Shown: piece by piece, positions 6,925 to 29,988 of the stretch | Numbering within the stretch: the first letter of the stretch is position 1 | Layout: each line of letters starts with the position of its first letter | From: a virus | Lineage: Duplodnaviria > Heunggongvirae > Uroviricota > Caudoviricetes | DNA: 31,239 nucleotides | IMG/VR virus record: IMGVR_UViG_3300037245_002365 | Direction: 5' to 3' (one strand) | Notes under the pieces: model-generated | Told to the model about the DNA's origin: nothing | The model's database searches: none | What the model saw: the letters and a program-made list of their open reading frames with translations, nothing else | Made by a program: the position numbers and the translations under genes

Positions 6925-6933
6925 TTTTATTCC

Positions 6934-7443
6934 TTATTGTACTGTTAATAGTATTGAATTGTTTTGTGCTGTAATAATTCTTATAGTCATTATCCATCCA
7001 CCATATGTTTCGTCATAAATGACGTTTTCTAAAATTAAATCTTGTAATTTTTCATTAGATTGCAAAGTCTCACCAGTCGACTCATACTCAATATCTTGTT
7101 TTTTTAAAGAATCTATTGTAGTCTGAATCAATACTGGTATTTGTCCTTTTATCTCATCTATTTCGTCTAATGATCGTGTACCAAATAGATGAAAAAAGTT
7201 TGATCCTGCATTAGTATCATAAGCATTAGAGCCTTTTAATGTAAAAATTGATTTTATAATACGTTGCACTAAATTTTGTTGGCCCATAATTAGATTGCCA
7301 GCCGTACCAATGCTATAAGTGATCGCTCCGTCCGTATCTTTTTCGATAATACCTAAATTTTGTAAATAGGCGTTCTGGTCTGCATTCGTCGGTTTTACCG
7401 AATATGTACCATCACTTTCTCTATTACTATAAATATTTGTCAT
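6934..7443 (-). CDS. gp25/GPW-like baseplate wedge (sheath initiator) protein
   Basis: GQQNLVQRIIKSIFTLKGSNAYDTNAGS fits the gp25 LxQxIxxxLxTxxG...GS pattern. The size and the position immediately before the J-like gene are canonical. Confidence 0.7.
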   Translation of the reverse strand: MTNIYSNRESDGTYSVKPTNADQNAYLQNLGIIEKDTDGAITYSIGTAGNLIMGQQNLVQRIIKSIFTLKGSNAYDTNAGSNFFHLFGTRSLDEIDEIKGQIPVLIQTTIDSLKKQDIEYESTGETLQSNEKLQDLILENVIYDETYGGWIMTIRIITAQNNSILLTVQ

Positions 7444-7460
7444 ACCTAATTATCCTTTTG

Positions 7461-9578: not shown

Positions 9579-9581
9579 TGC

Positions 9582-10307: not shown

Positions 10308-10309
10308 AA

Positions 10310-11422: not shown

Positions 11423-11425
11423 AAT

Positions 11426-13927: not shown

Positions 13928-16308
13928 TATTTTATTTCTTTAGTCGGCATTGCGCCTTGATTATCTTTCATTCTATCGGCAATATACTTAATTGCCGTTG
14001 CCGTTGTTTTTTCAGAAGTACCATACATTTCCTGTACAACCCTGCCAAAGGCTTCCCTATCTTTACCCTCTAGTTCTCTATAAGCCTTCATAGCTTCAGT
14101 GGAACTTACACCACTTATCTTTGAATAATCTATTTCGCCCTTTGTACCAAAAAACCTTTCTTTGGCGCTTTTATATCCTTCTAACGCCAGCTCTGCAACC
14201 TCTTCATCTTCTGGCATTACCAAACTTCCTTTTTCTGCTATTTCAATTGTTAATCTATCGCGCAATTCATTGATACTGGTTTCTTTCCAACCCATTGTTT
14301 TTGCTTGAGCTAATAACATTTGGCCACCTGGTGAAACTCTCAATGCCTCTGTAGCAGTAAAGATTGCTTGCTCTTCTTCAGTTAAAGGAACACTGGATTC
14401 ACGTAAAGTCGCTGCAGTATATGGTGTACCAGAAATTAACATACCTGTCTTTTCACCATACTTTGCTGGTTCTACAAATCCTGATGGTCTTTTTTCCGCT
14501 ATGCTTGCTCTTATTGCAGCGAGGTCAATAGGTTCGCCGCCTTCTCTTAAAGAGCCTTCTATATTATAAACCTCTCTGTTTATTCCTCTAAAAGCCTCTT
14601 TGACCCTTTGTTTATAACCTATACCTGCCGGATCAAAACCAAGTCCTGAAAAGGCACTTTCTACAAAAGCAAGTCCCTTAGCAATTACACTAGCAGAGTT
14701 TTCTTCTACTATTCCTTCCATTGTACGAATACCTGCTTCACCACTTATCTCTAACATGCCAGCCCGCCCAAGACTACTCATAGTTAGTAACAGTTGCGCC
14801 TGCGCTGGATCAGCAATACCTTGTGATACCATAAATCCGCCAACGTTTCCTTGTGTGGGATCAATACCCATTGCACGCAATTGGTCAGCCATAGTATTAA
14901 CCATACTCATTGTGCCGCCAAAGAAACCTCTCTGCTCTTGTATAGCGGCAGACTGCGGCCCTCTTGCCATCAATGCGGTAAAATAATTTTCAGGTGTTGA
15001 TAGGAAATTCGCAGCTCCAGTAAAACGCTCTTGGAATGTTCCGCCTAAGCCGCCGCCCCCCATGTAATTATAAACATCAAGTTGGCCAATAGCACTTTGG
15101 TTATAACGTAATACAGTCTCAGCCATATTCATAGAGGCTGCTTCTCTTCCACCAAGATCTCTAACCATAAAATTAGATACTGGGTTTGCCATCATTAATG
15201 CATCTGTTGTCATTAATGCCGATTGAGCCATCTCAAATCCGGTAGCTGCGCCAAGACCAGTACCCATGACCATTTCTGCTCCACGCATACCAAATTGCAT
15301 AAAGTCCAATCCAGACATTCCAACGGAAGTTCCCATGGCTTGTTGTGATATAGCAAAGCCACCAATACCGCCCATCGTGGTAATTCCTTTTTGTTGCAGA
15401 CCACCCATTATAGCAGCAGCCTCCTCTTGGAAAACACCTAAAGCATGAGCAACAGTTCTAACATTTTCTACAACACCTTTTACTGTTTGTGTGAAATCTT
15501 GCGTACCTTGCATACCTTGAAAACCACCAGCATTACTGAAAACAGATAATACTTCTTGAATGTCTTGTCTTGTTACATCATTTAATTGTCCCTGAAATGA
15601 AGTCGTATAAGCTTCTAGATCAGTTGCTAAAGCTAATCCAGCCTTTCTGGATATTCCACCAATTGATAAATCGGCCAAATTTTGTATACCTTCAAAGATC
15701 TCATTTCTATCACTTACTCTACCAGTTAAGAAACTTAGCCCAACATCAGCTGCCATACCAAAACCGCCACCAACTAAACCAAAAGCTGCAGTACCCATGA
15801 TTGTTAGAGCGTTTTCAGCAAAGAAGTCTCCTATATCTTCTCCTAAGGATTCTCTAACTGCCCCACCATAAGCTCCTCTTGATAATGGACCTCTTGGATC
15901 ATATCCTAACCCAAGGGTTGCTGCTCCAACTCTTCCAAAGAACCCTTGTGGAAGGTTAGCATCTAATCGAGAAAGGGGCGCAGTGAAATCTGGATAATCT
16001 GTAGGTTGCATAAGACCAACACGTCTCATATCACCAGTAAACTTATTAAATCCAAGTTGTGCACTTTCAGCCATCCTATCCATCATTTCCATAGCGCCAC
16101 CAACACCGTTTTGGAAAGTTTGCATAGCGTCTGTAGCTTGGAATCCGCCAGTACCGGACATAAAATTAGAAAGACTAGGAGGTGGTACAGCAAAGGCCGC
16201 ACCTCTTCCCATCGCCAAATCTATTTGTTGGCGTACATTGTCTAATTGCGCTCCTAAATCCTCTTGATCTAGTTCTATCTTATATTTTACAACTTCATCT
16301 AAAGCCAT
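13927..16308 (-). CDS. Tape measure protein-like (793 aa)
   Basis: Gly/Ala/Met-rich helical protein with hydrophobic segments, located immediately downstream of the frameshifting chaperone pair. Confidence 0.75.
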   Translation of the reverse strand: MALDEVVKYKIELDQEDLGAQLDNVRQQIDLAMGRGAAFAVPPPSLSNFMSGTGGFQATDAMQTFQNGVGGAMEMMDRMAESAQLGFNKFTGDMRRVGLMQPTDYPDFTAPLSRLDANLPQGFFGRVGAATLGLGYDPRGPLSRGAYGGAVRESLGEDIGDFFAENALTIMGTAAFGLVGGGFGMAADVGLSFLTGRVSDRNEIFEGIQNLADLSIGGISRKAGLALATDLEAYTTSFQGQLNDVTRQDIQEVLSVFSNAGGFQGMQGTQDFTQTVKGVVENVRTVAHALGVFQEEAAAIMGGLQQKGITTMGGIGGFAISQQAMGTSVGMSGLDFMQFGMRGAEMVMGTGLGAATGFEMAQSALMTTDALMMANPVSNFMVRDLGGREAASMNMAETVLRYNQSAIGQLDVYNYMGGGGLGGTFQERFTGAANFLSTPENYFTALMARGPQSAAIQEQRGFFGGTMSMVNTMADQLRAMGIDPTQGNVGGFMVSQGIADPAQAQLLLTMSSLGRAGMLEISGEAGIRTMEGIVEENSASVIAKGLAFVESAFSGLGFDPAGIGYKQRVKEAFRGINREVYNIEGSLREGGEPIDLAAIRASIAEKRPSGFVEPAKYGEKTGMLISGTPYTAATLRESSVPLTEEEQAIFTATEALRVSPGGQMLLAQAKTMGWKETSINELRDRLTIEIAEKGSLVMPEDEEVAELALEGYKSAKERFFGTKGEIDYSKISGVSSTEAMKAYRELEGKDREAFGRVVQEMYGTSEKTTATAIKYIADRMKDNQGAMPTKEIK

Positions 16309-16312
16309 TTCT

Positions 16313-16720
16313 TTATTCCCTTGTTTGTTTTACTAATTCACCTAAACTTACAGAATTTAAATCACTAGTATACTTTTCAGCGTCTCCTAATACTATTTCT
16401 GTAGGTGTTCCACGACCGCCGATTAGTTGTTGTAGTTCGTCCTGCATTGATTGTTTTGCGTCTTTTGTTTCGCCTGTTATTCCGAAGGTTACTCTGTGAT
16501 ACTCGTTCATCAGTTTACTGTGTTTTTCCATAGCATCTGTTTGATCGATGGTTTCTACACCAAGTATCGCAGAAGATGATAAGATCATTGTCTCCAAATA
16601 TCTGAGTGTTTTCTCCTTCTCTAATGAGCGCAACAAAACAAACTCCCTCAATCCTCCTCTTGTGCCTAAGTCAACACCTTTGGAGATCGCTTCAACTCTT
16701 TTTAGATTGAGGGGTCTTCG
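16313..16720 (-). CDS. C-terminal (gpT-like) part of the tail assembly chaperone, reached by -1 frameshift
   Basis: The frame of ORF 16313-16651 stays open upstream to the slippery site: (FF)RRPLNLKRVEAISKGVDLGTRGGLREFVLLRSLE... The fusion product would be about 296 aa. Confidence 0.8.
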   Translation of the reverse strand, partial: RRPLNLKRVEAISKGVDLGTRGGLREFVLLRSLEKEKTLRYLETMILSSSAILGVETIDQTDAMEKHSKLMNEYHRVTFGITGETKDAKQSMQDELQQLIGGRGTPTEIVLGDAEKYTSDLNSVSLGELVKQTRE

Positions 16721-17202
16721 AAAAAATATTCGTCTACTTTTTCGTACTCAAGCGCAACTCTGATCTGTTTCTCAAATCCGTGCTGTGCCTTACCTAATTT
16801 GTCTACTGCTATTGGAGGCAGTTTTTTTAGAAAGTCTTCAATCTGTTCTGGTTTAGTAAATTTCTGTTTGACACCTTCTGTGTTTACACTTACAATTGCG
16901 GCTTTCAGTAATTCCATTGTATACTTGTGTAATACCTGTGCTGTTGTGCCTTCTAATTTACTTAAAAAGGTATCTAAGTGTAATTGATTTTCTGTAATAA
17001 GGTTTTTAAGAGTTACAGATTTCTTGCCGGGGATAATATCAATTTCAATAGTTGTAATTCCGTCTTCAAATAACTCTGTTAAAATTTTATCTTTTTGCTT
17101 GTCAGTAAGTTTAATTACTTTTTCTTTTTTTACTGGTACTTCCGGAGAGGATACTTCTTCTTTTGAAGTATCTACTTTATTCTTTTTCTTTGCTTCGGTC
17201 AT
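16702..17202 (-). CDS. Tail assembly chaperone (gpG-like, 166 aa)
   Basis: Two genes upstream of the tape measure gene. Ends ...DEYFFEDPSI with a T TTT TTC slippery heptamer. Confidence 0.8.
   Translation of the reverse strand: MTEAKKKNKVDTSKEEVSSPEVPVKKEKVIKLTDKQKDKILTELFEDGITTIEIDIIPGKKSVTLKNLITENQLHLDTFLSKLEGTTAQVLHKYTMELLKAAIVSVNTEGVKQKFTKPEQIEDFLKKLPPIAVDKLGKAQHGFEKQIRVALEYEKVDEYFFEDPSI
16720..16726 (-). other. -1 programmed ribosomal frameshift slippery site T TTT TTC
   Basis: The minus strand reads GAA TAT TTT TTC GAA, an X XXY YYZ heptamer in the correct phase. The -1 frame has a TGA a few codons before the site and none after it until 16313. Confidence 0.85.
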
Positions 17203-17238
17203 TTAATTCTTCTTTGGTTAATAAATTTTCTCTACCCT

Positions 17239-17270
17239 TAAATATAGTACATTTTTTGTTTTAAAGCCAA
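17239..17270 (-). promoter_or_regulatory. Putative leftward promoter TTGGCT-N18-TATATTTA
   Basis: Intergenic, upstream of the tail operon. Has the same TATATT element as the candidates at 19265 and 23823. Confidence 0.5.
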
Positions 17271-17326
17271 GCGGTATTTCATATTTTTTGGTATAAGAAG
17301 TTAGAACATAACCGTATTAATTATAA

Positions 17327-18697
17327 ATGATACAAATACAATTAGACAGCGAAACATTGCTGTCCGGATTAACCAAACAACATATTTCTAATATAAAAAG
17401 TTTGGTAACAATTAACAACCCAATGTTCTATAAGAGATTAGACATCGGGTTATCTAATTGGGGAGTTCCACCAGACCTTTCGTATTATACGGAAATGGGT
17501 GACTCCTCTATTATAGTGCCTATGGGCGCAACAGAAGAAGTCATAAATTTATTATTAGACAGCGGTCAAAAATTATCAAAAAGAAGTATTACAGATAACC
17601 GAGTAGATAATGAATTAGTAGACTATTTTTCTAAATTAAAATTTAACGGAGAGCCCAGAAAATATCAGGGTGATACCGTCGATGTTTGCATGGACAAAAC
17701 AGTTGGAGTCGTACAGGCCAAAACTGGTTCAGGCAAAACATTTATGTTTGTTGATCTGACTTTTAGAAGACAACAACAAACGCTTATTTTAGTCAACACT
17801 ATTGAATTAGCAGATCAGACTGTAGACGCATTCTGCAAATTTTCGAATATAAAGAAAGAAGACATTGGTTTTATTGGGAATGGAAAATTCGACTTGAAAC
17901 CAATCACAGTTTGCTTGCATCAAACTCTTGCAAAATTAAATGGTGAGAAGACTAAATTAGTATCTGATAAAGTTGGGATGGTTATAGCTGACGAGGTACA
18001 TATATGTGCCGCTGACTCATACTATAATAATATGTGTAAATTACGGGCCAAATATAAATTTGGTTTTAGTGCTACACCTAAGAGACCCGACGGCTTAACA
18101 AAAGTTATACACTGGGCGACTGGCCCAACTATACATGAGGTTGATCCGGCTTTATTAAAAGACGTTCTGATAACACCTGACCCAATATATATTAATACTA
18201 ACTATTATTTTCCTTATATGGGATCACATGAATATCAAGAAATGATTACTGACTTATGTGATGACGAGGAAAGAAACCAACTAATTGTTAGAACATTAAA
18301 TAGAGATTATAAGTATAACAATGTAGCCATGCTTTGTTCTCGCGTTAGTCAAGTGGAAACACTTAAAGAAATGATTGGTAGAAAAGCCGTCATGCTACAT
18401 TCTAAGATGACAAAAAAAGTTAGAAAAACAACTATGGATTTATTACGTAATAGAAAAAAGACTGTTGTTATTTCAACATATGGGCTTTTCAGCACAGGTA
18501 TTGATATACCTCACCTAGACACCTTATTTTTATGTGCTCCTATGCGCTCAGAAATAAAAATTCGCCAATCGGCAGGCCGATTAATGCGTATGTGTGAGGG
18601 CAAGACTGCTGCTACCATTGTAGATTTTGTTGATAAAAAAATTGATCCATTAAAATATCAGGCATATGCTAGAAAGAAAATATTAACCACCTTATAA
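17327..18697 (+). CDS. SF2 DExH-box helicase (SSL2/UvsW/ResIII-like)
   Basis: PRKYQ Q-motif, Walker A AKTGSGKT, DEVH, SAT, STGIDIP and QSAGRLMR. Confidence 0.93.
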   Translation: MIQIQLDSETLLSGLTKQHISNIKSLVTINNPMFYKRLDIGLSNWGVPPDLSYYTEMGDSSIIVPMGATEEVINLLLDSGQKLSKRSITDNRVDNELVDYFSKLKFNGEPRKYQGDTVDVCMDKTVGVVQAKTGSGKTFMFVDLTFRRQQQTLILVNTIELADQTVDAFCKFSNIKKEDIGFIGNGKFDLKPITVCLHQTLAKLNGEKTKLVSDKVGMVIADEVHICAADSYYNNMCKLRAKYKFGFSATPKRPDGLTKVIHWATGPTIHEVDPALLKDVLITPDPIYINTNYYFPYMGSHEYQEMITDLCDDEERNQLIVRTLNRDYKYNNVAMLCSRVSQVETLKEMIGRKAVMLHSKMTKKVRKTTMDLLRNRKKTVVISTYGLFSTGIDIPHLDTLFLCAPMRSEIKIRQSAGRLMRMCEGKTAATIVDFVDKKIDPLKYQAYARKKILTTL

Positions 18698-18699
18698 TT

Positions 18700-19233
18700 A
18701 TGAAAAAAGAAATAAACATTAAACCGAATACAATTCTAGACACACCAGCTGTAAAATGCTTAACCGTCAGTCTCGATAATTCCCTCACAGGGACATTATC
18801 TGGAGAAGACGCTCAAGAAACTTATATGCCTCACGTTATAGATTTAATTCGGGATTTAAAAGATACCGCAGAAAGTCTTAAAGACAATTGTCTTGGACTT
18901 GCAGCAAACCAAATTTGGGATAATCCTGAAATTGGCTGCCCTTCTGTATTTATTATGAGATGGCCTAACAGCAAAGATCCACAAGGTTGGGAATGGAAAG
19001 TTGTTATAAATCCAAGAATAAACACAACGGGCAAAACTTTGAAGTTCGAAGAATCCTGTCTTAGTATGCCAGGACGTATTAAACGTTTAAGTCGTGGACA
19101 AAACGTAGAGATGTCGTATCAAGAGGAAGATAGCCATGCAGTAAAATATATTAAATTTTTTCGTAGGCATGGAATCTATCCATCAATAGTACAACATGAG
19201 TATAATCATCTGATGGGAAAAACAATTATTTAA
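18700..19233 (+). CDS. def: Peptide deformylase
   Basis: Motif 1 CLGLAANQI, motif 2 EESCLS and motif 3 QHEYNHLMG. Confidence 0.88.
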   Translation: MKKEINIKPNTILDTPAVKCLTVSLDNSLTGTLSGEDAQETYMPHVIDLIRDLKDTAESLKDNCLGLAANQIWDNPEIGCPSVFIMRWPNSKDPQGWEWKVVINPRINTTGKTLKFEESCLSMPGRIKRLSRGQNVEMSYQEEDSHAVKYIKFFRRHGIYPSIVQHEYNHLMGKTII

Positions 19234-19240
19234 AAAACAT

Positions 19241-19272
19241 TTTGTTTTTTGAAACACAAAGAGGTATATTAG
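19241..19272 (+). promoter_or_regulatory. Putative promoter TTGTTT-N17-TATATT (also TTTG-N20-TATATTAG)
   Basis: Located in the intergenic gap after def, with canonical 17-nt spacing. Confidence 0.5.
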
Positions 19273-19273
19273 A

Positions 19274-19465
19274 ATGAGTACACAAAGAATCCTAACAAGG
19301 AAAGAAGTTGCAGAAAGAAAAGAAGCTATAAATAACTGGTACATTCCAGCAAACCAAATGTATGCTATGAGCGCCAATGGAACCATTGTAGCGATAGAAA
19401 ATACTTTTGATGCAAGAGTGCAGTTCAGAAGCGAAGATCTTTTTGTAAGTGGAGCTGGACGTTAA
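19274..19465 (+). CDS. Small hypothetical protein (63 aa)
   Basis: Fills the gap, with GAGG 9 nt before the ATG. No recognisable motif. Confidence 0.55.
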   Translation: MSTQRILTRKEVAERKEAINNWYIPANQMYAMSANGTIVAIENTFDARVQFRSEDLFVSGAGR

Positions 19466-19483
19466 AAATAACCATAAAAACAA

Positions 19484-19849
19484 ATGCCTAAAATTAATTA
19501 TGGCTTTGAAGAAGGTGTCTTAGAAACTACTGGGGCAGACCAAGAATATTTGATTCGACCAAATTACCGGATTACACGGTCATGTGGGAATTGTAAATAT
19601 TTTTGGTATCATTTTGCAAAGCAAAGGCGCGGCTTTTGTAAGCTACCAAATCCAAAAGAGAAAGACCCTAAAAAATGTTTTGGGGAAAGTTTTGATGTAG
19701 AGAGAATCTATGCCGAATGGCATAGAACGCACTCTTCTTGTTTGTGTGATAACCATGTTATGAAACCAAAAGTTTATAGCATTGGTAAGATTTCTGAATG
19801 GACAGAAAAAAAGTTTAACGCAGACGGTACATTAAAAGAAGATGACTAA
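19484..19849 (+). CDS. Hypothetical Cys-rich, probably metal-binding protein
   Basis: SCGNCKYF...GFCKL...CLCDNH. AACC motif 10 nt upstream. Confidence 0.7.
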   Translation: MPKINYGFEEGVLETTGADQEYLIRPNYRITRSCGNCKYFWYHFAKQRRGFCKLPNPKEKDPKKCFGESFDVERIYAEWHRTHSSCLCDNHVMKPKVYSIGKISEWTEKKFNADGTLKEDD

Positions 19850-20228
19850 TATATTATTATTAATCGCGTTAGTTGGGTTTATTGTTTACAGCATTAAGTT
19901 GTATAGAAAAGCAGAACTAGCCGAAAACAATTATTCTGCCTCAGTGCAGGATTACACTAAGTTGCTTTCTCAAAAGAAAAGCAGCGAGGTTAAGACAGGA
20001 CATATTGCTGAAAAGCTTGCTCCGTTCTTAAGTAATTTTCCAAAGCACTCAAAAACTGCCGACATTGTTCCAATGTTTATGCCTATAGATTATATGATAT
20101 TTGATACAGATGTTATTAAGTTTCTAGAAGTTAAATCTGGAGACGCAAGGCTAAGCAAAAAACAAAGGCATTACAGAGACCTCGTTAAAGCGGGTAAAGT
20201 GGAATGGCACGAAATGAGAATCAAATAA
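19842..20228 (+). CDS. Holliday-junction-resolvase-like PD-(D/E)xK nuclease (Endonuc_Holl/PF10107-like) with N-terminal membrane anchor
   Basis: SEVKTGHIAEKLAPFL, PIDYMIF and FLEVKSGDARLSKKQ...RDLV. Hydrophobic N-terminus ILLLIALVGFIVYSI. Confidence 0.85.
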   Translation: MTNILLLIALVGFIVYSIKLYRKAELAENNYSASVQDYTKLLSQKKSSEVKTGHIAEKLAPFLSNFPKHSKTADIVPMFMPIDYMIFDTDVIKFLEVKSGDARLSKKQRHYRDLVKAGKVEWHEMRIK

Positions 20229-20232
20229 ATAT

Positions 20233-23025
20233 ATGGATGTAAAGACCTTTAGAAAGCTGTTCGTCCATAGGGATGATTGTTATTCCGTACAAAGTGTTAT
20301 GGGCAGCTACCGATTAGAAGAGGAGAAAGTAACCGATGATGTGCTAGAAGCGCATCTTGACGGCAAAGTAACCGTAGGATTCTATCAAGTAATGCCCGTG
20401 CAAAACACTATTAAATGGGCTTGCTTGGACGTTGACTTATTAAAGGAAGTACACGGCGCTGAAGGCTATGATGTTGAGGAATGGAAACCGAAATTATTAG
20501 AACAAGCACAGATACTTAAAGACGCTTATGCGGCAAAAGGAATCCCTTCTTATATAGAATTTTCTGGATATAAGGGATACCACGTATGGACCTTCTTTGA
20601 GACACCCGTAGACGCGGGCGTTGTAAAACGAGGAATGGAAACCATATGCAAGGATTTAGTACCAGTACATAAATCCATTCTTTGGGAATACTTCCCAAAG
20701 CAAACACACGTAGCTGAGGACGGTAAGGGTAGCTTAGTAAAAGGCCCAGGGGGTTATCATCATAAGAGCAAGCAATTTAGCAAGTTCGTTGACGAAATAA
20801 ATCTCAAAGAAATCAAATACGCAGACGTTGCAAGATTTGCAAGTGTTAATAGTCCACACCAAATGGTTTTAAAGCGCTGTATGGCGATAAGAAATCTTTG
20901 GGAGAGGGCTTTAGAAACAGGCACAATGTCACATATGGACAGAATGGCTGTTAGTTTGGTATTCTCAAAAACTGAGGGTAGTAGAGAATTTCTGAAAACG
21001 GAATTATTTTCTAAACTCAAAGGCTATGATGAAAAAATTACAGATGATAATCTTAATAAAATATCAGCCAAAGTAAATGAGAACAGTGATGATCCTGGAT
21101 ACTTTCCTATAACTTGTGCAAGGCTACAAGACAGCGAATACGGAAACGTATGTACTGGAAAATGTAGCGAGATACAACGCGGAAGGAGTCCGATAGCATT
21201 CTATCATTGGGAAACCAAACAAGATAATGTAGAGTCAGACGCTATTAACAAAATGGACTTTTTGTTTAAGGCTGGAAACGCCTATTTTGAGAAGGTAACT
21301 AATCATAAGGGCGAGGTAAGTATTAAACAAATTTCTTCGTTTGTAATAGACCTACAAAAGAGATATTTAGTGTCTGATGGAATAACCGAACATATGGAGT
21401 TTGCTGGGATAATACAAGACGATGAAGTCTCAAAAGAATTCAAGATAGACTCTACAGTTTATTCAAACAATGAGAAATTGCGGGATGCAATTTATAAAGA
21501 ACTTAGTCCAGATAAATTACTTATCGATAATATAGAAACCGTAAGAAACGCAATTAACGCACACTCAGATACAGAAGAAATCAAAGTACTAAAGCAATTT
21601 GGTTATAATACAATAGATACTGTTGACCTGTACAAACAGCCAACTGTTTATAGGACACCATCTATGTGTATTACAGCAGAGGGTATTGAAGAAAACAAAG
21701 AGATTGTAATTGACTTACAGGATGAAGAATTTGGAAGAAACTTAGATTTTATAAATCTCAGTGATGAAGAATTCAAAACTGTAAAGAAAGCAATTAAAGA
21801 CGACCTCCTTACTCTTGGCGCAAAAGAAGAAACACATGTAATGTTGGCTTTTACATTCTTGCCTATAATCTTTCCATTCCTTTCAGGAGATAAAACCAAA
21901 TTCTCCTTAGAATTGAGAGGTACGACAGGAACAGGAAAATCCTATTTCCTAAAAGCGATGCAAAACTTCTATGGAGTCTTTAATCAGATTCCGACATGGG
22001 ACAGCACACCCAATTCACTTCCAAGAATTGGATACGTGTTCAAAGATGCACTATTTTCGATTGATGACTTTAAGAAAAGAACGCTGGATAAATACCATAA
22101 TGGTTACGCGGGTGCAATGACACTCTTGCAGAATTATGCAGATAACACCTCTAGAAGTCGTATGAACCAAGATAGAAGCATTGATAAAACATATATTGTT
22201 AGAGGGTGGTTGGCCATGACAGGCGAAGATACGCCAGAAGGCGAAGCATCTAACCTTGCAAGAATGTTTTTGAAAACATACCACGGGAATCCAGACGGAA
22301 TAGATCATGAAAAAGGCCATCGTACAGAACAAATACGACACTTGTATTGTGGAGTTACTCCAAGATACATTCATAAAATAATGTCAACTAATTCTGTTAT
22401 ACTAGATAAATCTTACAGAGATTATTTAGACAAGTTTTTTAAACTTGTAAAGGGCCAAATAAATGATATTAGAATCTCCAGAACAATAGCTTTGATGGCT
22501 ACTAGCTATCATCATGTTGCAGAGTTCCTTTGGCCAAAATCCGAAGCTACTGAAAATATTAAATGGTTTGAAGAATACTTATCTAATAAAATTGTAAGCC
22601 TTATTAAGGAAGCAGCCGGTGAAATGGCATCAGACAAATTCTTAGTATCTTTATCAGACATGCTAGGCGCAGGCCGTGTTAGAATGAAAAGACATAGAGC
22701 AGGAGATGGTGATGAATTAGACAGAGCACCTGTAATTGGGTTCTGGGGCAAATCAAAAGATAAAAGTCTTGCAGAAACATACCATGACGTTAACATTCCA
22801 TATGTAATAATAGGGACTGCCTACGGTCAGGTAAATAAATATTTGAAAGAGGGTGGCGGGAAACTGTCTCACTCACAAAAGGCATTATTAGAGCAACTCT
22901 ATGAAGGCGGTTATAGTCTTGACAAGGAGGCCAAACCTACTGGTTTTGGTGGCTCTAGTGTTAGGGTTATAAGACTTAAGCCAGAATATTTAAAATTCAT
23001 GGATGGAGACGAGGAAACCGAATAA
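20233..23025 (+). CDS. Primase-helicase: AEP primase domain + PriL-like Cys domain + DUF927/Cch-like P-loop helicase
   Basis: AEP motifs WACLDVD, EFSGYKGYHVW and YFPKQ. Cys cluster C...SHMDR...YFPITCARL...CTGKC...SP. Walker A GTTGTGKS and Walker B FSIDDF. Confidence 0.85.
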   Translation: MDVKTFRKLFVHRDDCYSVQSVMGSYRLEEEKVTDDVLEAHLDGKVTVGFYQVMPVQNTIKWACLDVDLLKEVHGAEGYDVEEWKPKLLEQAQILKDAYAAKGIPSYIEFSGYKGYHVWTFFETPVDAGVVKRGMETICKDLVPVHKSILWEYFPKQTHVAEDGKGSLVKGPGGYHHKSKQFSKFVDEINLKEIKYADVARFASVNSPHQMVLKRCMAIRNLWERALETGTMSHMDRMAVSLVFSKTEGSREFLKTELFSKLKGYDEKITDDNLNKISAKVNENSDDPGYFPITCARLQDSEYGNVCTGKCSEIQRGRSPIAFYHWETKQDNVESDAINKMDFLFKAGNAYFEKVTNHKGEVSIKQISSFVIDLQKRYLVSDGITEHMEFAGIIQDDEVSKEFKIDSTVYSNNEKLRDAIYKELSPDKLLIDNIETVRNAINAHSDTEEIKVLKQFGYNTIDTVDLYKQPTVYRTPSMCITAEGIEENKEIVIDLQDEEFGRNLDFINLSDEEFKTVKKAIKDDLLTLGAKEETHVMLAFTFLPIIFPFLSGDKTKFSLELRGTTGTGKSYFLKAMQNFYGVFNQIPTWDSTPNSLPRIGYVFKDALFSIDDFKKRTLDKYHNGYAGAMTLLQNYADNTSRSRMNQDRSIDKTYIVRGWLAMTGEDTPEGEASNLARMFLKTYHGNPDGIDHEKGHRTEQIRHLYCGVTPRYIHKIMSTNSVILDKSYRDYLDKFFKLVKGQINDIRISRTIALMATSYHHVAEFLWPKSEATENIKWFEEYLSNKIVSLIKEAAGEMASDKFLVSLSDMLGAGRVRMKRHRAGDGDELDRAPVIGFWGKSKDKSLAETYHDVNIPYVIIGTAYGQVNKYLKEGGGKLSHSQKALLEQLYEGGYSLDKEAKPTGFGGSSVRVIRLKPEYLKFMDGDEETE

Positions 23026-23038
23026 ACCAACATAACCT

Positions 23039-23791
23039 ATGTTTGTACACAGTCTGTTTAGTAGCAGCGAGGGCAATGCATGCTTAATTTATAATGATGA
23101 AACATCATTTATGATTGATGCAGGCATTAGCTTTAAAAAAATGGCAGCGGCCTCAACTATAGAGTTTGAGCCGAAAGCCGTATTTATAAGTCACGAGCAC
23201 TCCGATCATGTGCTTGGGGCAGGAATACTGGGACGTAAGAAAGGAACTAAAATATTTATTCCAGAAGCGTCCTTTGAGAAAAAGGCAACCTTATTTAAGA
23301 ATTGTACTGTGGAGTACATAACTGGTGGAGATATAAGAACCGTAGGTGATTTTGAAATCACATGCTTCAGCACAAGACACGATAGTCTAAATAGTGTTGG
23401 ATTCATAATTTTAGAGAAGTCAACTGATAAAAAGTTTGGCTATATCACTGATACTGGATCATTCTCCTCAATGATGAAAACGCAGTTAATTGGATGTGAT
23501 GCATACCTTTTGGAAGCAAATTATGATTCCCAAATGTTGGCGGATTATGATGATTACATCGAAGAACACAAAACAAGAATTGCCAGTCCATATGGACATT
23601 TAAGTAATGATCAAGTAATTACCTTTATTGAGGACAGCCTCAATGTAAGTAATACAAAGTGGATATTGTTTGGACACATGTCACCAAGAACAAATAGTCC
23701 AGAGATATTAATGAAATCTATTGAAGATAGATTGGGGCACTATGGAGATAAATTCTTTGTAGCGCCAACAGAAAAAGCTATGGAAATATAA
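23039..23791 (+). CDS. MBL-fold metallo-hydrolase (YycJ/WalJ-like exonuclease)
   Basis: SSSEGNA, IDAG, SHEHSDH, HDS, TDTG, EANYD, GHLSN and GHMS. Confidence 0.9.
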   Translation: MFVHSLFSSSEGNACLIYNDETSFMIDAGISFKKMAAASTIEFEPKAVFISHEHSDHVLGAGILGRKKGTKIFIPEASFEKKATLFKNCTVEYITGGDIRTVGDFEITCFSTRHDSLNSVGFIILEKSTDKKFGYITDTGSFSSMMKTQLIGCDAYLLEANYDSQMLADYDDYIEEHKTRIASPYGHLSNDQVITFIEDSLNVSNTKWILFGHMSPRTNSPEILMKSIEDRLGHYGDKFFVAPTEKAMEI

Positions 23792-23798
23792 AGTTTTA

Positions 23799-23830
23799 TT
23801 TGCTATAGCAGCGAAATCTAGTTATATTTA
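23799..23830 (+). promoter_or_regulatory. Putative promoter TTGCTA-N17-TATATT (also TTTG-N20-TATATTTA)
   Basis: Located in the 67-bp gap before the exonuclease gene. TTGCTA at 23800-23805 and TATATT at 23823-23828. Confidence 0.65.
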
Positions 23831-23858
23831 AGTATATAGCAAAACCAAAAAAAAACTT

Positions 23859-24542
23859 TTGAAAACAATAACCTTTGACATAGAAACTATCCCTCAAAGA
23901 TCAGACCTATCCCCCGCTCAAGTTGTAGAACTTGAAAAGCGAGAAAATAAATACTATTGGAACAAAGATCGTGAAGATTGCGATCAAGAAGATGTTCGTA
24001 AGATGCTTATGGGTACAAACCCATTACTCGGAGAAATAGTATGTATTGGTTTATTAGGGCATTCCGATTCAGGAGCATCAACCAGCAAATCTCTGTTCGT
24101 CACTGACGGTATAAGAGAGAAAGAAATGCTTGAAGAGTTCTGGGAAATCTTAGGAAACCCTAAAAGTAAAGGTAGTCTGTTCGTTTCGTTTAACGGACTA
24201 GGCTTTGATGTTCCTTGGATCATCAAGAGATCGATGGTAAATGGGATACTTCCTACAAACAACGAGTTTCTAAATACCCGCCGATATTTAAAGTATCCGC
24301 ATTTTGATGTCTTGCAAGTTTTGGCAGACTACTCACCCAGAGACTATATGACCCTGGATTTAGCATGTGACATGCTAGGAGTAGAAACACCAAAAGATGG
24401 CGAGATTAAAGCAGAGAATGTAGCGCAGGCTTTTAAAGACGGACAAATACAAGAAATAGCAGACTATTGTTTAAAAGACATTGAAGCTACATACAAAGTG
24501 TACGAGATAGTATCAAAATATGTACACACACAACGATATTAA
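23859..24542 (+). CDS. Stand-alone DEDDy 3'-5' exonuclease (PolB proofreading-like)
   Basis: ExoI FDIET, ExoII FNGLGFD and ExoIII YCLKD. TTG start. Confidence 0.9.
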   Translation: MKTITFDIETIPQRSDLSPAQVVELEKRENKYYWNKDREDCDQEDVRKMLMGTNPLLGEIVCIGLLGHSDSGASTSKSLFVTDGIREKEMLEEFWEILGNPKSKGSLFVSFNGLGFDVPWIIKRSMVNGILPTNNEFLNTRRYLKYPHFDVLQVLADYSPRDYMTLDLACDMLGVETPKDGEIKAENVAQAFKDGQIQEIADYCLKDIEATYKVYEIVSKYVHTQRY

Positions 24543-24554
24543 CCAAACTTATAA

Positions 24555-25502
24555 ATGAGTTTATTTGCACGGGCGGAAGCCTCTCCAGCCAGAATTAAAA
24601 TGATGGTTTATGGAAAAACGGGAACAGGAAAAACAGTCGCTTCCTTGCAATTCCCAAACCCAGTAGTTATTGATACTGAAAAAGGTACACAATACTATGG
24701 TGAACATTTTACGTTCGACAGACTAGAAACAGTTGATCCTGATAAAGTTATTGAAGCTTTGGATGAACTTATTGAAGATCCTAAAAACTACAAAACATGT
24801 ATTATTGACTCAGTTTCTGTTTTATGCGACCTCATAGTTGACAAACATACTATGCGCAAAAGACTAAAAACAGGCGATGACAATGCTGTTTTACAAGGAT
24901 TAGATTTTGGGGCAGTAAAGACTGATATTAAAGCGCTTATTAAAAGATTACTTGCCTTAGATATGAATATAATTGTAACTGCACACTCTAAAGATGTATT
25001 TGCTAAAGGCAAATTCATGGAAATAGAGGGAACAGTCCCTGAAAGTCATAAAGATCTGCCTTACGTTTTTGATGCTCTTCTTGAGTTACAAAGAGAAAAG
25101 GATACTAATAGATTCTTAGCTAGAGTAGAGAAGTCAAGAATAGATGCATTACCTGACAAAGATGAAGTATTTGAATTTAGTTATGAAAGCTTCGTTGAAA
25201 TGTTGGGCATAGAGGGCATGGAAAGAGACGCAAGTGCGTTCGAACAAAAACGTGAAATTAATGCAAGATCAGGACGAAGCACTCAAATAGAAATTGATGG
25301 CAATGAAGTCTTTACAGCAGGTATTGACTCGGAAACACTCATTAGCATTAAAGAGCTTATAAGTGATGCTGACCCAGAAGCAGTTGAGCATATGTTAAAC
25401 GAAAACTACATGGTTACTAGCCTTTTAGATTTGCGAGTAGATGAGGCAAAAGCCTTTTTAGCCGAGGTTCAATCAGCTAAACAAAATAAAGAAAATAATT
25501 AA
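24555..25502 (+). CDS. AAA_24 family ATPase (Sak4-like single-strand annealing protein)
   Basis: YGKTGTGKT, IDTEKG, IIDSVS and IIVTAH. Adjacent to a DUF669-type SSB gene. Confidence 0.85.
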   Translation: MSLFARAEASPARIKMMVYGKTGTGKTVASLQFPNPVVIDTEKGTQYYGEHFTFDRLETVDPDKVIEALDELIEDPKNYKTCIIDSVSVLCDLIVDKHTMRKRLKTGDDNAVLQGLDFGAVKTDIKALIKRLLALDMNIIVTAHSKDVFAKGKFMEIEGTVPESHKDLPYVFDALLELQREKDTNRFLARVEKSRIDALPDKDEVFEFSYESFVEMLGIEGMERDASAFEQKREINARSGRSTQIEIDGNEVFTAGIDSETLISIKELISDADPEAVEHMLNENYMVTSLLDLRVDEAKAFLAEVQSAKQNKENN

Positions 25503-25520
25503 TAAACCAAATAATAATTA

Positions 25521-25982
25521 ATGAGTCTAAATTTTAAGACATATAAGAAAGAAAATCCTAACGGACCCGGCGGAGATTTTTCTCCACTACCAACAGACCG
25601 TTATGATGTAGAAGTAGAGAAAGCAGATTTATTCATAGCAGATAGTGGCAATGCTTGCATTAAAACACAATTTGTTGTACTTTCCGATAAATTTAAAAAT
25701 AGGAAACTATGGACTAACTTTACGTTAATTCCCTCTTCAATGGGTTTTGTTTTCGCTTTATTAGAATCCAATGAGTCAGCCTTATTGGATCAAGACGGCG
25801 TCGAAAATGAAGCTATAGCTGAAGCATTGGTAGGCATGCGTTCTAACGCATATGTAGAGCCAGATAGCTATGGGGATAAGCCAGGAAATAAAATAGGCGG
25901 ATTTAAGCCAGTAAAAGGCGAGTATGGCACAGAGGAGAAAGCACCGGATGAGCCAGCAAAAGGAAGTAATTTATTCGGCTAA
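25521..25982 (+). CDS. DUF669-like single-stranded DNA-binding protein
   Basis: DFSPLPTDRYDVEVEKA...SGN...F.VL...FKNRKLW pattern and a flexible acidic tail ending NLFG. Confidence 0.8.
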   Translation: MSLNFKTYKKENPNGPGGDFSPLPTDRYDVEVEKADLFIADSGNACIKTQFVVLSDKFKNRKLWTNFTLIPSSMGFVFALLESNESALLDQDGVENEAIAEALVGMRSNAYVEPDSYGDKPGNKIGGFKPVKGEYGTEEKAPDEPAKGSNLFG

Positions 25983-26002
25983 ATAGTTGAATAATTAGTT
26001 TT

Positions 26003-26032
26003 ATGGGGTGACATTCGTGTCGCCCCATTTTT
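26003..26032 (+). terminator. Rho-independent terminator with UUCG loop
   Basis: ATGGGGTGACA-TTCG-TGTCGCCCCAT (11-bp stem with one G-U pair) followed by a T tract, right after the SSB gene. Confidence 0.9.
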
Positions 26033-26050
26033 AATTAACCAAGTGAAAGA

Positions 26051-26341
26051 ATGACAAACATATTATTTTTAAATCTGCCACATAAAGACTTATGCTCCGC
26101 CATTGATCTGCTAGAAAGCAGTAAGGATGAGTTCAGAGTTTTTGTTGCAGACACAGACGGCCTTGATCGCGAAGTAGATTTCTATGCCGGAATAAGGGTA
26201 TTTGATATGCCTTCTATTGACAATGCGGGATACACCGCTAGACTAGAAACATTAGTAGAATCCCTAGGAATAGATTACATACACGCTACCACAACAAGTA
26301 TTTTTCCACGATTAGCTAAAATTGAAGATGATAACAAATAA
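26051..26341 (+). CDS. Hypothetical protein resembling the N-terminal domain of ATP-grasp/PylC-like enzymes
   Basis: NILFL...FRVFVADTD...MPSIDNAGYTARLETLVESLGIDYIHAT. AACC motif 10 nt upstream. Confidence 0.55.
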   Translation: MTNILFLNLPHKDLCSAIDLLESSKDEFRVFVADTDGLDREVDFYAGIRVFDMPSIDNAGYTARLETLVESLGIDYIHATTTSIFPRLAKIEDDNK

Positions 26342-26354
26342 ACCATGTAAAATA

Positions 26355-26954
26355 ATGGGATTTTTTAGTTTTTTAAAACCTAAACCAAAACCAGAGATAG
26401 TAGAGATTGTAGAAGAGCCACTTTCTATAGATGACATCAGCGCTATTCTCCCGTGGCACGCAACAAGAAGTTGGTCAAAGAGAGCTTTATCTAGTGTCAA
26501 CAAGATTGTTGTGCACCAAAGCTTAACACCTAGAACAAGAAGTAGTTTTGAAAATATCAATAATTATCATATTACTCCTGGCGGTCAAAACCACATCAGT
26601 CCAAATGGTGCACCACACATATGTTACCATTATGGTATTGATGCAGATGGTAAGGTAGTGCAATTTAACAAGTTATACCAATCTGTATGGCATTGTAAGG
26701 GAGCTAATTCCACGTCCATCGGTATACTAGTTCTAGGTAATTTTTACGGCCCTACCTATGAAGGTGATGAAGTTACGCCCACAGAAGCGCAACTGTCGAG
26801 CCTTGAGAAGCTCTTAGACTTCCTAACTAGTGAAGGGACTGTTCGTGTAGACAAAGACAAGGTCTTCGGTCACAGTGCGTTTGGAAAAGAAAATTGCCCA
26901 GGGTTGGCAATAGATAAGTTTATAGAAATATATAATGAGGAAGTGACAGGATAA
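26355..26954 (+). CDS. N-acetylmuramoyl-L-alanine amidase (Amidase_2/PGRP, T7-lysozyme-like)
   Basis: IVVHQS, CYHYGI, WHCKGANSTSIGI and GHSAFGKENCPG (Zn ligands H, H, C). Start moved to ATG 26355, which removes the overlap and has AACC 10 nt upstream. Confidence 0.9.
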   Translation: MGFFSFLKPKPKPEIVEIVEEPLSIDDISAILPWHATRSWSKRALSSVNKIVVHQSLTPRTRSSFENINNYHITPGGQNHISPNGAPHICYHYGIDADGKVVQFNKLYQSVWHCKGANSTSIGILVLGNFYGPTYEGDEVTPTEAQLSSLEKLLDFLTSEGTVRVDKDKVFGHSAFGKENCPGLAIDKFIEIYNEEVTG

Positions 26955-26973
26955 TTATATCCTGGCGCTAGAA

Positions 26974-27657
26974 ATGAAGGAAGAGATAAAGAGCGGTATA
27001 TACATTATACGGAATGAACGTAATCAAAAAATGTATGTGGGTTCTGGTATAGACTTAAGAAAGCGTAAACGAGAACATAAAAATGATTTAGAGGCCAACA
27101 GACATGCTAATGGGCATTTACAGAATGCTTTTAATAAATATGGTTTAGAAGCATTCACCTTTAATGTTGTTGAGTGTGTCTTGGATGCAAATAACTTAAT
27201 TCCTAGAGAGCAGTTTTATATGGATTATTATAAAACCGCTAATGCTGTATTTGGTTATAATTTATGTTCTAAAGCAGGAAGCGTTTTAGGGTATAAACAT
27301 ACCGAAGAATCTCGCAAACAAATGTCAGAAGCACATAAAGGTAAAAAACTTTCTGAAGATACTAAAAAGAAAATGTCAGAAGCGCACAAGGGTAAAAAAC
27401 GCTCTATAGAAGTATGTAGTAGACTGTCAGAAGCGCATAAAGGCAAAAAGCTTTCTATGGAAACTCGTAAAAAAATGTCAGAATCAAAAAAGGGCGAAAA
27501 AAACCAAGAATCAAAACTAAGTGAAGTTAATGTGATAGAAATAAGAAAGTTAATCTCTAGTGGAAGTACATTACAAGACATAGGAGATATATTTGACGTA
27601 ACAGCGCAAGCGATTTACGCAATAAAATGCGGAAAAACCTGGTCTCACATTAAGTAA
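26974..27657 (+). CDS. GIY-YIG homing endonuclease with NUMOD3 repeats and C-terminal HTH
   Basis: SGIYIIRN...YVGS, HLQNAFNKYG, REQFYMD, GYNL, repeated SEAHKGKK and terminal LQDIGDIFDVTAQAIYAIKCGKTWSHI. Confidence 0.93.
   Translation: MKEEIKSGIYIIRNERNQKMYVGSGIDLRKRKREHKNDLEANRHANGHLQNAFNKYGLEAFTFNVVECVLDANNLIPREQFYMDYYKTANAVFGYNLCSKAGSVLGYKHTEESRKQMSEAHKGKKLSEDTKKKMSEAHKGKKRSIEVCSRLSEAHKGKKLSMETRKKMSESKKGEKNQESKLSEVNVIEIRKLISSGSTLQDIGDIFDVTAQAIYAIKCGKTWSHIK
27322..27501 (+). repeat. Four 51-bp coding tandem repeats (NUMOD3)
   Basis: (a/c)tgtcagaa... units start at 27322, 27373, 27424 and 27475. Confidence 0.85.
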
Positions 27658-28121
27658 TGGCCTCTCGTGGATCAGACTTAGAGAAGCGTGTTAATAAAGC
27701 AAATACTCTATATAAAAAAGAGAAAAGCGCATTAATAATGAAGGTGGCAGTACCTATACTTTACACACGTAAAGGCATGGTTGCAACATCCTCTACAGTT
27801 GACTATACCGGAGTGTTAAATGGTGGGCGTTTCTTGGCAATGGATGCTAAAGAAACACAAAGTAAAACATCATTTGCATTAAAGAATATCCACCAACACC
27901 AACTTACATATTTACAATATGTTAGGGATCTTGGTGGAATTGCATTTTTTTTAATACATTTCAAAAAAGTTCATTCAGATAAAGCATACATTGTGCCAAT
28001 AGAAAAGGTAGAAGAGTATCAAGTTGAAGGTATGCGTAAAAGCATACCAATTAAAGAGTTTCTACCTGAATGGCTTGTTGATATAGACAATTATCTAGAA
28101 AATATACAACCAAAACAATAA
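27657..28121 (+). CDS. recU: Holliday junction resolvase RecU
   Basis: RGSDLE, STVDYTGV, AMDAKET, NIHQHQLTYL and GGIAFFLIHF. Confidence 0.92.
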   Translation: MASRGSDLEKRVNKANTLYKKEKSALIMKVAVPILYTRKGMVATSSTVDYTGVLNGGRFLAMDAKETQSKTSFALKNIHQHQLTYLQYVRDLGGIAFFLIHFKKVHSDKAYIVPIEKVEEYQVEGMRKSIPIKEFLPEWLVDIDNYLENIQPKQ

Positions 28122-28123
28122 TA

Positions 28124-28786
28124 ATGAAATTAACAATTGGTATTCCTACCATAAACAGAGCGGATTTGTTGGCTGAAGCCTTAGAGGATATAAAGACCAT
28201 GGCAAATGATCTTCATAGCCTTATTTTAGTTGATAATGGAAACCAAGTAATACATATTCCAGAGGAGTTAGTTGGTATTACACACCTATACAGACCCGGA
28301 ACTAACCTTGGAGTAAGCGGTAGTTGGAATTATATGCTACGTAAAGCTTACAATGAGGATGGTACAGATAACGTGTTGTTATTAAATGACGACATCGTAT
28401 TTGGGAAATCTGTGAATGAGGTAAATACAATTATTTCAAACCACCCAAACTACCAAACTGTTGTTGGGCCAAAACATTGGTGTACGGTACTTGTATCCAA
28501 GCGATGTATAGAAACTGTTGGATATTTTGATGAAAAGTTTTTTCCAGCATATTATGAAGACAATGATTATGCATATAGAATAAACTTATTGCATAATGCA
28601 GACCCAGAAAACTATAATGGATTAGAGCTTGATCTAGCACTTAATCCTAAAGTATTTAGAAATTCTATGACTATTCAGAAAGACAAAACTTTAAATAAAC
28701 ACTTTAGTGAAAATAAAAAGTATTTTATAAAGAAATGGGGCGGAAAGCCACACAAAGAAACATTTACAAAACCATTTAACAAGTAA
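28124..28786 (+). CDS. Glycosyltransferase family 2
   Basis: IGIPTINR, LVDNG, NLGVSGSWN, LLLNDD and GYFDEKFFPAYYEDNDY. Confidence 0.9.
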   Translation: MKLTIGIPTINRADLLAEALEDIKTMANDLHSLILVDNGNQVIHIPEELVGITHLYRPGTNLGVSGSWNYMLRKAYNEDGTDNVLLLNDDIVFGKSVNEVNTIISNHPNYQTVVGPKHWCTVLVSKRCIETVGYFDEKFFPAYYEDNDYAYRINLLHNADPENYNGLELDLALNPKVFRNSMTIQKDKTLNKHFSENKKYFIKKWGGKPHKETFTKPFNK

Positions 28787-29988
28787 TGGAAGAAAAAAGA
28801 AAGATACCACTGTTTAAAGTATATATGTCAGACACGGCTAAAGATGCTGTGGGAACTGTATTAGATAGTGGATACATAGGACAAGGTCCTAAAGTTGAAG
28901 AATTTGAAGGAGCGCTTAAAGATAGATTTAATCACGATTTTGTTCTTACAACCAATAGTGCCACTTCAGCAGAACACCTAGCGTTGCACATGCTAAAAAA
29001 AGCAGCAGAGCATCGTCACGCCCCTTTAAATATTCCTGGATATACGGTTAAAAACTGGCCTGGAATACAAGAAGGCGACGAAGTGTTAACAAGCGCTTTA
29101 ACCTGCACAGCAACTAACTGGCCTATTTTAGCAAACAACTATAGGATTAAATGGGTTGATGTTGATGAGAATACTCTAAATATGGACCTAGACGACCTAG
29201 CACGCAAGATAACGCCGACAACTAAAGTAATTTATTTAGTACATTGGGGCGGGTATCCTTTAGATTTAGATCGTGTAAAAGCTATTCAAGAGAAGGCATA
29301 TAGTATGTACGGTTTTAAACCAGCCGTGATAGAAGACTGTGCGCATTCTTTTGGAAGCACCTATAAAAATAAGCCAATAGGTACACATGGAAATATCTGT
29401 ACATTTAGTTTTCAAGCTATTAAGCATGTAACCTCTGTCGATGGTGGAGCACTTTTTGTTCCTCATGAGGAGTTATATAAAAGAGGAAAACTGTTACGTT
29501 GGTATGGTATAGACCGTGAATCTAATAGAAAAGATTTTAGATGTGAAGCAGATGTCGTAGAGTGGGGTTTCAAATTCCACATGAATGATGTTTCCGCAGC
29601 AGTTGGAATCGAGAATTTAAAACATGCGGATGAGATTGTTGGGAAACATAAAGACAACGCAGCTTATTATAATGAGGCGTTAAAAGGTGTTTCGGGAGTT
29701 ACTCTCCTAGAAAACAAAGATGACCGTGAATCTGCCTATTGGCTTTATACTATAAAAGTAAAAGACCGTGATAAATTCACAGAACATATGGCAAAGCATG
29801 GCATAGCCGTAAGTCGCGTGCATGAACGCAACGATTTGCATACAACAGTACGAGAGTATATCACCGCCTTACCAGCATTAGATAAGGTTGTTAAAGAAAT
29901 GATTTGTATTCCAGTAGGCTGGTGGGTCACTGAAGAAGACCGCGAGTATATTGTAGAAACAATCAAGAGTGGCTGGAATGAGAACTAA
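28786..29988 (+). CDS. DegT/DnrJ/EryC1/StrS family PLP-dependent sugar aminotransferase
   Basis: GPKVEEFE, NSATSA, VHWGG, IEDCAH and FSFQAIKHVT (PLP lysine), DGGA. Confidence 0.95.
   Translation: MEEKRKIPLFKVYMSDTAKDAVGTVLDSGYIGQGPKVEEFEGALKDRFNHDFVLTTNSATSAEHLALHMLKKAAEHRHAPLNIPGYTVKNWPGIQEGDEVLTSALTCTATNWPILANNYRIKWVDVDENTLNMDLDDLARKITPTTKVIYLVHWGGYPLDLDRVKAIQEKAYSMYGFKPAVIEDCAHSFGSTYKNKPIGTHGNICTFSFQAIKHVTSVDGGALFVPHEELYKRGKLLRWYGIDRESNRKDFRCEADVVEWGFKFHMNDVSAAVGIENLKHADEIVGKHKDNAAYYNEALKGVSGVTLLENKDDRESAYWLYTIKVKDRDKFTEHMAKHGIAVSRVHERNDLHTTVREYITALPALDKVVKEMICIPVGWWVTEEDREYIVETIKSGWNEN

Follow-up and report, generated by a model that had tools for sequence, protein, structure and literature searches.

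To our knowledge, very few start signals defined by their sequence have been described in bacteria and phages other than Shine-Dalgarno (SD) pairing and leaderless starts. Short conserved non-SD words close to a start codon are known from the -10 boxes of leaderless genes and from the epsilon enhancer of phage T7. In phage T4, RegA binds the initiation region of about 30 early mRNAs, many of which code for replication proteins, and thereby represses them; its sites there are A/U-rich, follow a loose definition, extend over the AUG and occur alongside an SD. The target of T4 RegB is an SD variant (a GGAG-type early ribosome-binding site) that is cleaved by this nuclease. The element described here is the hexamer TAACCA, which lies at a short, fixed distance before many start codons in a 31,239-nt stretch of DNA (the window) from the Caudoviricetes virus record IMGVR_UViG_3300037245_002365 of IMG/VR. 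Judged from comparison of sequences, TAACCA appears to be a second signal for starting protein synthesis that has not been described before, and it is somewhat probable that it serves as an mRNA signal that replaces the SD for a conserved class of genes.

In the window AACC ends 10–13 nt before the start codon at 12 of 31 starts, whereas shuffled 40-nt upstream stretches average 0.43 such starts and never exceed 6 (0 of 20,000 shuffles reach 12; binomial p 5e-14). AACC at spacers other than 8–15 occurs only three times in the upstream stretches of the window, and AATCA stands at the matching position before two further starts. The positional enrichment claimed by the original prediction, which had been made from the letters of the window, therefore holds against a shuffled control, and all 12 of its AACC sites and both AATCA sites were reproduced with their coordinates and spacers. 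The window is part of a 228-kb metagenome contig (JGI 3300043172). Its relatives, found by way of the primase and numbering about 200 in the viral collection searched, are uncultured marine phages, and five of them in IMG/VR measure 189–210 kb with completeness rated 97–100%, thus defining a jumbo-phage family. Four complete relatives (G006, G007, G009 and G010) were scanned genome-wide. Three of these show a sharp peak of AACC spacers at 10–11 nt (28/343 genes in G006, 37/354 in G007 and 43/316 in G010), so that the motif accounts for 8–14% of their genes; in G009 the spacer histogram is flat and the 5-mer scan gives no AACCA signal.

When all 5-mers between -20 and -4 are scanned, only SD words (AAGGA, AGGAG) and AACCA/TAACC are enriched (p 1e-15 to 1e-22), AAGGA and AGGAG being the top words in all four genomes. 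Alignment of the sites on AACC yields a compact hexamer, T-A-A-C-C-A, with A after the CC in 88 of 98 sites and G before the AA almost never, and reveals no conserved partner farther upstream. Among the 15 single-base variants of AACCA that were tested, AATCA is enriched at this position (20 observed vs 3.3 expected, p 4e-10) and AACCG weakly so; the others are not enriched. Nor is a hairpin of the motif with an upstream GGTT partner enriched (10/93 motif genes vs 53/799).

The motif and the SD tend to exclude each other. An SD-like word stands ahead of 46% of the genes lacking the motif and of 10% of those having it (odds ratio 0.12, p 2e-15), although arrangements such as TAACCAGGAG demonstrate that both can fit before one gene. 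The same orthologues bear the motif in G006, G007 and G010 (45 core orthogroups of the four genomes; Fisher p 2e-4, 0.03 and 0.01), while the average identity of the proteins shared by these genomes is 34–43%, and 10 of the 14 motif orthogroups have an SD in motif-less G009, giving orthologue patterns such as AAAS and AA.S. Across 13 loci, the genes for the helicase, the metallo-beta-lactamase-fold (MBL) protein, the exonuclease, the AAA_24 protein and the DUF669 protein have TAACCA or AATCA in most relatives, an SD in L003, L023 and L025, and neither signal in L009 and L021. The motif class is concerned chiefly with DNA metabolism; it also includes genes for an amidase, a reverse transcriptase, an intein-bearing protein and a phage bS21. 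The RNR gene has the motif in the window's own genome and an SD in G007 and G010, with no call in G006. Conserved structural genes of G006, G007 and G010 are mostly SD-led or have neither signal, with the exception of the first gene of the leftward block, which bears the motif. The proposal that two classes of initiation region exist in these phages is thus supported by comparative evidence, both in the avoidance of SD and in the swaps of SD and motif at orthologues. The reverse transcriptase gene (RVT_1, L097:5230-6246) is conserved in G006, G007, G009 and G010, with TAACCA in G010 and an SD in G009; the intein splicing domain is found in a G006 motif-class protein of 779 aa (L097:172-2511).

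TAACCA resembles the SD in being a short mRNA motif at a fixed short distance before the start of single cistrons, in swapping with the SD at orthologues, and in rarely standing alongside it on one gene. Unlike the SD, it has no complementarity to the anti-SD core CCUCC (having C-C where the SD has G-G), lies 2–3 nt farther upstream with a spacing of 10–11 rather than 6–10 nt (AAGG ends 6–10 nt before the start, so that SD spacing is both broader and closer), and is confined to 8–14% of genes and to one functional class. A further difference is that AAGGAG is depleted within coding sequence (z -3 to -5.5) and TAACCA is not (z about 0 to +3), and elongating ribosomes therefore seem not to see it. 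Because its spacing is sharp, the SD is strongly avoided, and the SD is swapped in at orthologues, a positive start-positioning element is favoured.

The same data must be considered in terms of repression. TAACCA could be the operator of a RegA-like phage translational repressor that shuts replication mRNAs late, with ribosomes loading through the A/U-rich leader; this is rather unlikely. A regulon-like set of genes for replication and nucleotide metabolism, kept across distant phages, fits a repressor equally well; a defined hexamer with strict base preferences and the lack of depletion inside genes also suit an operator, and the loss of the motif from shared genes of whole clades, followed by an SD, is expected on loss of a cis/trans pair. 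Many genes start without a recognisable motif, and a repressor site on an SD-less leader is possible. However, an operator provides no reason to lose the SD, yet the SD is approximately fivefold rarer on motif genes, and the sharp spacing of 10–11 nt is more typical of a start-positioning element. Like RegA regulation, this is a phage system with sites in the initiation region and a regulon rich in replication and nucleotide metabolism; unlike the RegA sites, TAACCA is strictly defined as six bases from -16 to -11 and stands in place of the SD. No match to the RegA family (PF01818) was detected among the window proteins or in the five relatives (G006–G010), for which the control genomes gave no match either. 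The likeness to T4 RegB and its GGAG target is that a class-specific ribosome-binding word permits class-specific post-transcriptional control in a phage; the differences are that TAACCA is unrelated to the SD and that no nuclease is implicated.

The window is AT-rich (~36% GC). Structural genes make up its leftward block (1–17202), and from 17327 onward a rightward block is devoted to DNA metabolism and sugar modification. This second block codes for a helicase, a peptide deformylase, a Holliday-junction-type nuclease, an AEP primase-helicase, an MBL-fold nuclease, a PolB-type exonuclease, an AAA_24 ATPase, a DUF669-like protein, an amidase, a GIY-YIG endonuclease, RecU, a glycosyltransferase, a DegT aminotransferase and a GNAT acetyltransferase. 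On the minus strand, a TAACCA box at 17215–17220, whose AACC ends 13 nt before the ATG at 17202, precedes the 166-aa first gene of the leftward block. The remaining boxes are on the plus strand, beginning with TAACCG at 17309–17314 (spacer 13) before the helicase gene 17327, TAACCA at 18684–18689 (spacer 11), within the last helicase codons, before the peptide deformylase gene 18700, and TAACCA at 19469–19474 (spacer 10) before the gene for a Cys-rich 121-aa protein (19484). The primase gene 20233 has the variant GAATCA at 20218–20223 (spacer 10), and the MBL-fold gene 23039 has AAACCA at 23024–23029 (spacer 10), the first two bases of which are the last two of the primase TAA stop. AAACCA at 23842–23847 (spacer 12) precedes the exonuclease gene 23859, for which a TTG start is supported by alignment of the protein with its orthologue from residue 1, and the exonuclease stop codon (24540–24542) in turn supplies the TAA of the TAACCA box at 24540–24545 (spacer 10) of the AAA_24 ATPase gene 24555. 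Farther along are AAACCA at 25504–25509 (spacer 12; DUF669-like gene 25521), TAACCA at 26036–26041 (spacer 10; 96-aa gene 26051), AAACCA at 26340–26345 (spacer 10; amidase gene 26355), CAACCA at 28107–28112 (spacer 12; glycosyltransferase gene 28124), AAACCA at 28769–28774 (spacer 12; DegT aminotransferase gene 28786) and the variant CAATCA at 29960–29965 (spacer 13; 240-aa gene 29978). As had been stated, the motif leaders lack GGAG, and SD-type sites do occur before 859, 3598, 6924 and 7443. The GIY-YIG homing endonuclease gene (26974–27657) has neither TAACCA nor an SD before its start, as expected of a recent insertion.

A further 11.7 kb of the same contig past the window end (L216) was also examined. 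AACCA or AATCA occurs there at a spacer of 9–10 before genes for 95-aa, 133-aa and 62-aa proteins, dUTPase (TTG start), RNR, a second sigma factor and PolA (GTG start), with a spacer of 10 at both of these non-ATG starts; in front of a 212-aa gene the spacer is slightly longer. All 29 complete window genes (window 871–30700) end in TAA, and the stretch past the window (L216:8651-18815) has 13 TAA and 2 TGA stops, so the TAA bias is strong and not absolute. Also located past the window (L216:16596-20288, window ~39216–42908) are a JAB/ThiF pair, the second sigma-70-family factor (regions 2 and 4) and the family A DNA polymerase.

Several of these features recall transcription signals. TAACCA could in principle be a promoter element (-10-like, used by a phage sigma factor) or an RNA-processing site that gives rise to short-leader or leaderless mRNAs: the window codes for a sigma factor (9582–10307) and a second one lies downstream, the distance of 9–12 nt to the ATG is close to that of a leaderless -10 box, and one TAACCA, that of gene 26051, directly abuts a terminator-like hairpin with an 11-bp stem and a T run (26003–26028, plus strand). 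This reading is nevertheless highly improbable. A different conserved box, T-rich or with a T run plus GGTATAAGAA, is present in about 25–30 copies in each of G006, G007 and G009, typically 25–45 nt before an SD and ATG and mostly ahead of small genes led by an SD; this box probably represents the consensus of the family's early promoters. In the window it is represented by the promoter-like, extended -10 type box TTTTTGGTATAAGAA at 17284–17299 (plus strand), upstream of TAACCA and conserved before the helicase gene in the relatives. At this locus, where the window and seven relatives all keep the GGTATAAGAA box, the interval from that box to the start codon is variable, and TAACCA, AATCA or AGGAG stays at a constant distance from the ATG. 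The claim that the motif resides on the mRNA rather than in a promoter is borne out by this separate upstream box at variable distance. The window has only one intergenic GGTATAAGAA copy (the second, GGTATAAG, is inside the exonuclease gene), and the rightward block is therefore probably one long transcription unit, with a TAACCA-type box before most of its cistrons. A further GGTATAAGAA-type box occurs past the window at ~35359 (L216:12739).

The placement of the motif is likewise difficult to reconcile with a promoter. In the window the box precedes 12 of 18 consecutive co-oriented genes, often within the preceding gene or using its stop codon. Among 93 motif genes of the relatives, TAACCA is inside the upstream coding sequence in 23, overlaps the upstream stop in 23, is intergenic in 25 and stands at the head of a block in 22; that 46 of the 93 boxes are inside or overlap upstream genes, together with the fixed spacing, agrees with the earlier observation that the motif tracks the start codon and not operon starts. 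The TTG and GTG starts that follow some boxes argue against leaderless mRNAs, with which they are poorly compatible, and orthologues swap the box for an SD and not for another promoter; in L003 a hairpin equivalent to that at 26003–26028 abuts an SD instead of TAACCA. The window sigma factor, finally, is equally present in motif-less G009. TAACCA thus shares with leaderless -10 boxes and T7 epsilon the property of being a short conserved non-SD word near the start, and differs from the former by the separate promoter upstream and the occurrence of non-AUG starts, and from epsilon-type enhancers in that no complementarity to a known accessible 16S site was found in the right register. Taken together, these comparisons indicate that TAACCA acts on the mRNA and not as a promoter. 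In 22 of the 93 motif genes (G006, G007 and G010) the upstream gene terminates on the TAA of TAACCA, an overlap that may reflect either sequence economy or a termination-reinitiation link.

A further distinction between motif genes and SD genes emerges from codon usage. When TGA is treated as sense, coding coverage rises from 0.77 to 0.92 in G006 and from 0.82 to 0.91 in G007. The in-frame TGAs cluster in structural blocks, and on comparison with standard-code relatives they correspond mostly to Trp (64/168 aligned positions); TGA is thus most likely read as Trp in these blocks. Inside the tail block, both genomes have a tRNA of 97 nt whose anticodon is UCA and which was scored as tRNA-Sec-like. 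In-frame TGA is found in only 1/34 and 1/37 motif genes of G006 and G007, respectively, compared with 26–31% of SD genes. Translation of the motif class therefore follows the standard code, which fits early or middle expression. The code appears standard in G009, G010 and the window; since the motif occurs in G010 in the absence of recoding, the two traits are separable. The suggestion that the motif may switch early or middle versus late translation receives indirect support from the nearly TGA-free motif class of the recoded relatives, and is too coarse as it stands, as many small SD-led genes are located behind the same promoter-like box and the terminase-side bS21 gene bears the motif. The loci L093–L103 belong to G006 and L104–L114 to G007. 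The complete relatives have about 16–30 tRNA genes and a tmRNA each (L097-L099, L108-L109, L120-L121, L125-L135), and a tRNA with anticodon CUA in G006 and G010 is a possible TAG suppressor.

SD-independent initiation with bS21-mediated sequestration of the anti-SD has been described in Bacteroidia (PMC7797042, PMC9976891), and phage-encoded bS21 has been described next to the terminase (PMC9723584, PMC7162821); these papers predict that phages redirect initiation. The present phages are similar to these systems with regard to SD-independent initiation and in that relatives code for bS21 beside the terminase. They differ in that the Bacteroidia systems have A-rich contexts and not a defined hexamer, the SD is dominant in the genomes studied here with no genome-wide lack of it, and the most motif-rich relative has no bS21. 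In three relatives the bS21 gene adjoins the large terminase gene upstream (L090:1435-1660, L091:1469-1678, L092:~1408-1653), and all three bS21 genes have AACCA or AATCA 10–11 nt before the start. The bS21 genes of G006 and G008 have in-frame TGA at differing positions, and the large terminase of G007 and G008 shows an apparent intein-like interruption (L092:1657-2574, L091:1824-2114). In their passages on SD or ribosome binding sites, PMC9723584 and PMC7162821 mention no such motif, and a literature search of limited coverage found no description of it.

It is also conceivable that the phages simply copy an ordinary non-SD initiation signal of their host that is read by the host ribosome; patchy use among related phages could then follow host range. 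This, too, is quite improbable: no real excess of TAACCA-N9-10-ATG is found in a sample of 402 genomes of bacteria, of which 251 are Pseudomonadota and 151 are Bacteroidota, the sole apparent excess being due to a tandem repeat (the largest case) or to sites without leader-like context. Two genomes of the Bacteroidota sample (G353 and G409) are unpublished, and the negative result is independent of them. Furthermore, AAGGAG is used for most phage genes that have a signal, so the host has a working anti-SD, and the motif is confined to one functional class. Searches aimed at close relatives and at a host pointed to neither: megablast found no close relative of the window among cultured phages, tblastn gave just distant Gordonia phage and unnamed matches, a single-protein scan of viral contigs gave no match, one genome-collection scan for a host gave matches that are all at or below 35% identity and scattered across many phyla, and an atlas search with bS21 returned viral clusters only.

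A dedicated, probably phage-encoded reader is suggested by the lack of an excess in the bacteria sampled, by a distribution that resembles a regulon and by the whole clades in which SD has taken over. Among the candidates, pairing with the 3' strand of 16S helix 45 (GGUUG) was rejected, as this strand is locked in a conserved hairpin (reasoned from E. coli 16S) and the register would set AACC at the start codon and not at -14 to -11. Little favours the tmRNA either, since UGGUUA is found only in the tmRNA of motif-less G009 and in none of the motif-bearing phages, or the sigma factor, which G009 has as well. Genes that do have the right phyletic pattern are those for RNR, NAPRTase, an RlaP-like nucleotidyltransferase, a structural protein and small unknowns. 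The 121-aa Cys/His-rich protein (19484–19849) has invariant C34, C37, C52, C88 and H91 and is found in the replication operon of most relatives; it belongs to no Pfam family.

TAACCA, with AATCA tolerated, would then be a cis element in the translation-initiation region, 10–11 nt (10–13 in the window) before the start, that takes the place of the SD for the helicase, MBL-fold nuclease, exonuclease, AAA_24, DUF669, dUTPase, PolA, amidase, bS21 and other genes of ~200-kb marine jumbo phages having ordinary AAGGAG sites elsewhere. We infer that it would act positively in start-site selection and that its reader would not be the canonical anti-SD core. The most likely reader would be a factor specified by the phage, with the mRNA or the 30S subunit as its target, and a separate translation channel for phage DNA-metabolism genes would result. 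In a more specific form, which is advanced tentatively, a phage-specified reader (a 30S-platform protein or a remodelled ribosome) may recognise UAACCA and place the start 10 nt downstream, possibly in connection with the phage bS21, tRNA and tmRNA toolkit. Equally tentative is the notion that such a private channel is independent of the anti-SD and serves standard-code replication genes, in parallel to genes that are SD-led and TGA-recoded.

Several points weigh against TAACCA as a positive start signal with its own reader. About 45% of genes have neither motif nor SD, showing that lack of an SD is tolerated and therefore weakening the argument that TAACCA must recruit ribosomes, and gene starts in the relatives were called with a simple longest-ORF, first-ATG procedure and are crude. 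As mentioned above, the regulon fits a repressor equally well, and a host-specific reader is conceivable. With respect to the reader, the RegA search supplied no candidate, no S1-domain gene was detected, and the presence of the sigma factor in G009 also counts here. bS21 is present in G006, G007 and G008 and absent both from motif-rich G010 and from motif-less G009, and the family of the 121-aa Cys-rich protein also occurs in the motif-poor L009 group, its AlphaFold model being poor (pLDDT 50) and unusable.

For annotation, the motif means that gene finders trained on the SD will misplace or under-score TAACCA-led starts. For the biology of large phages, a strict hexamer that marks one class of genes provides a concrete, mutable target with which to address how they partition host ribosomes, a question that bears on jumbo phages equipped with bS21, tRNAs, tmRNA and recoded stop codons.

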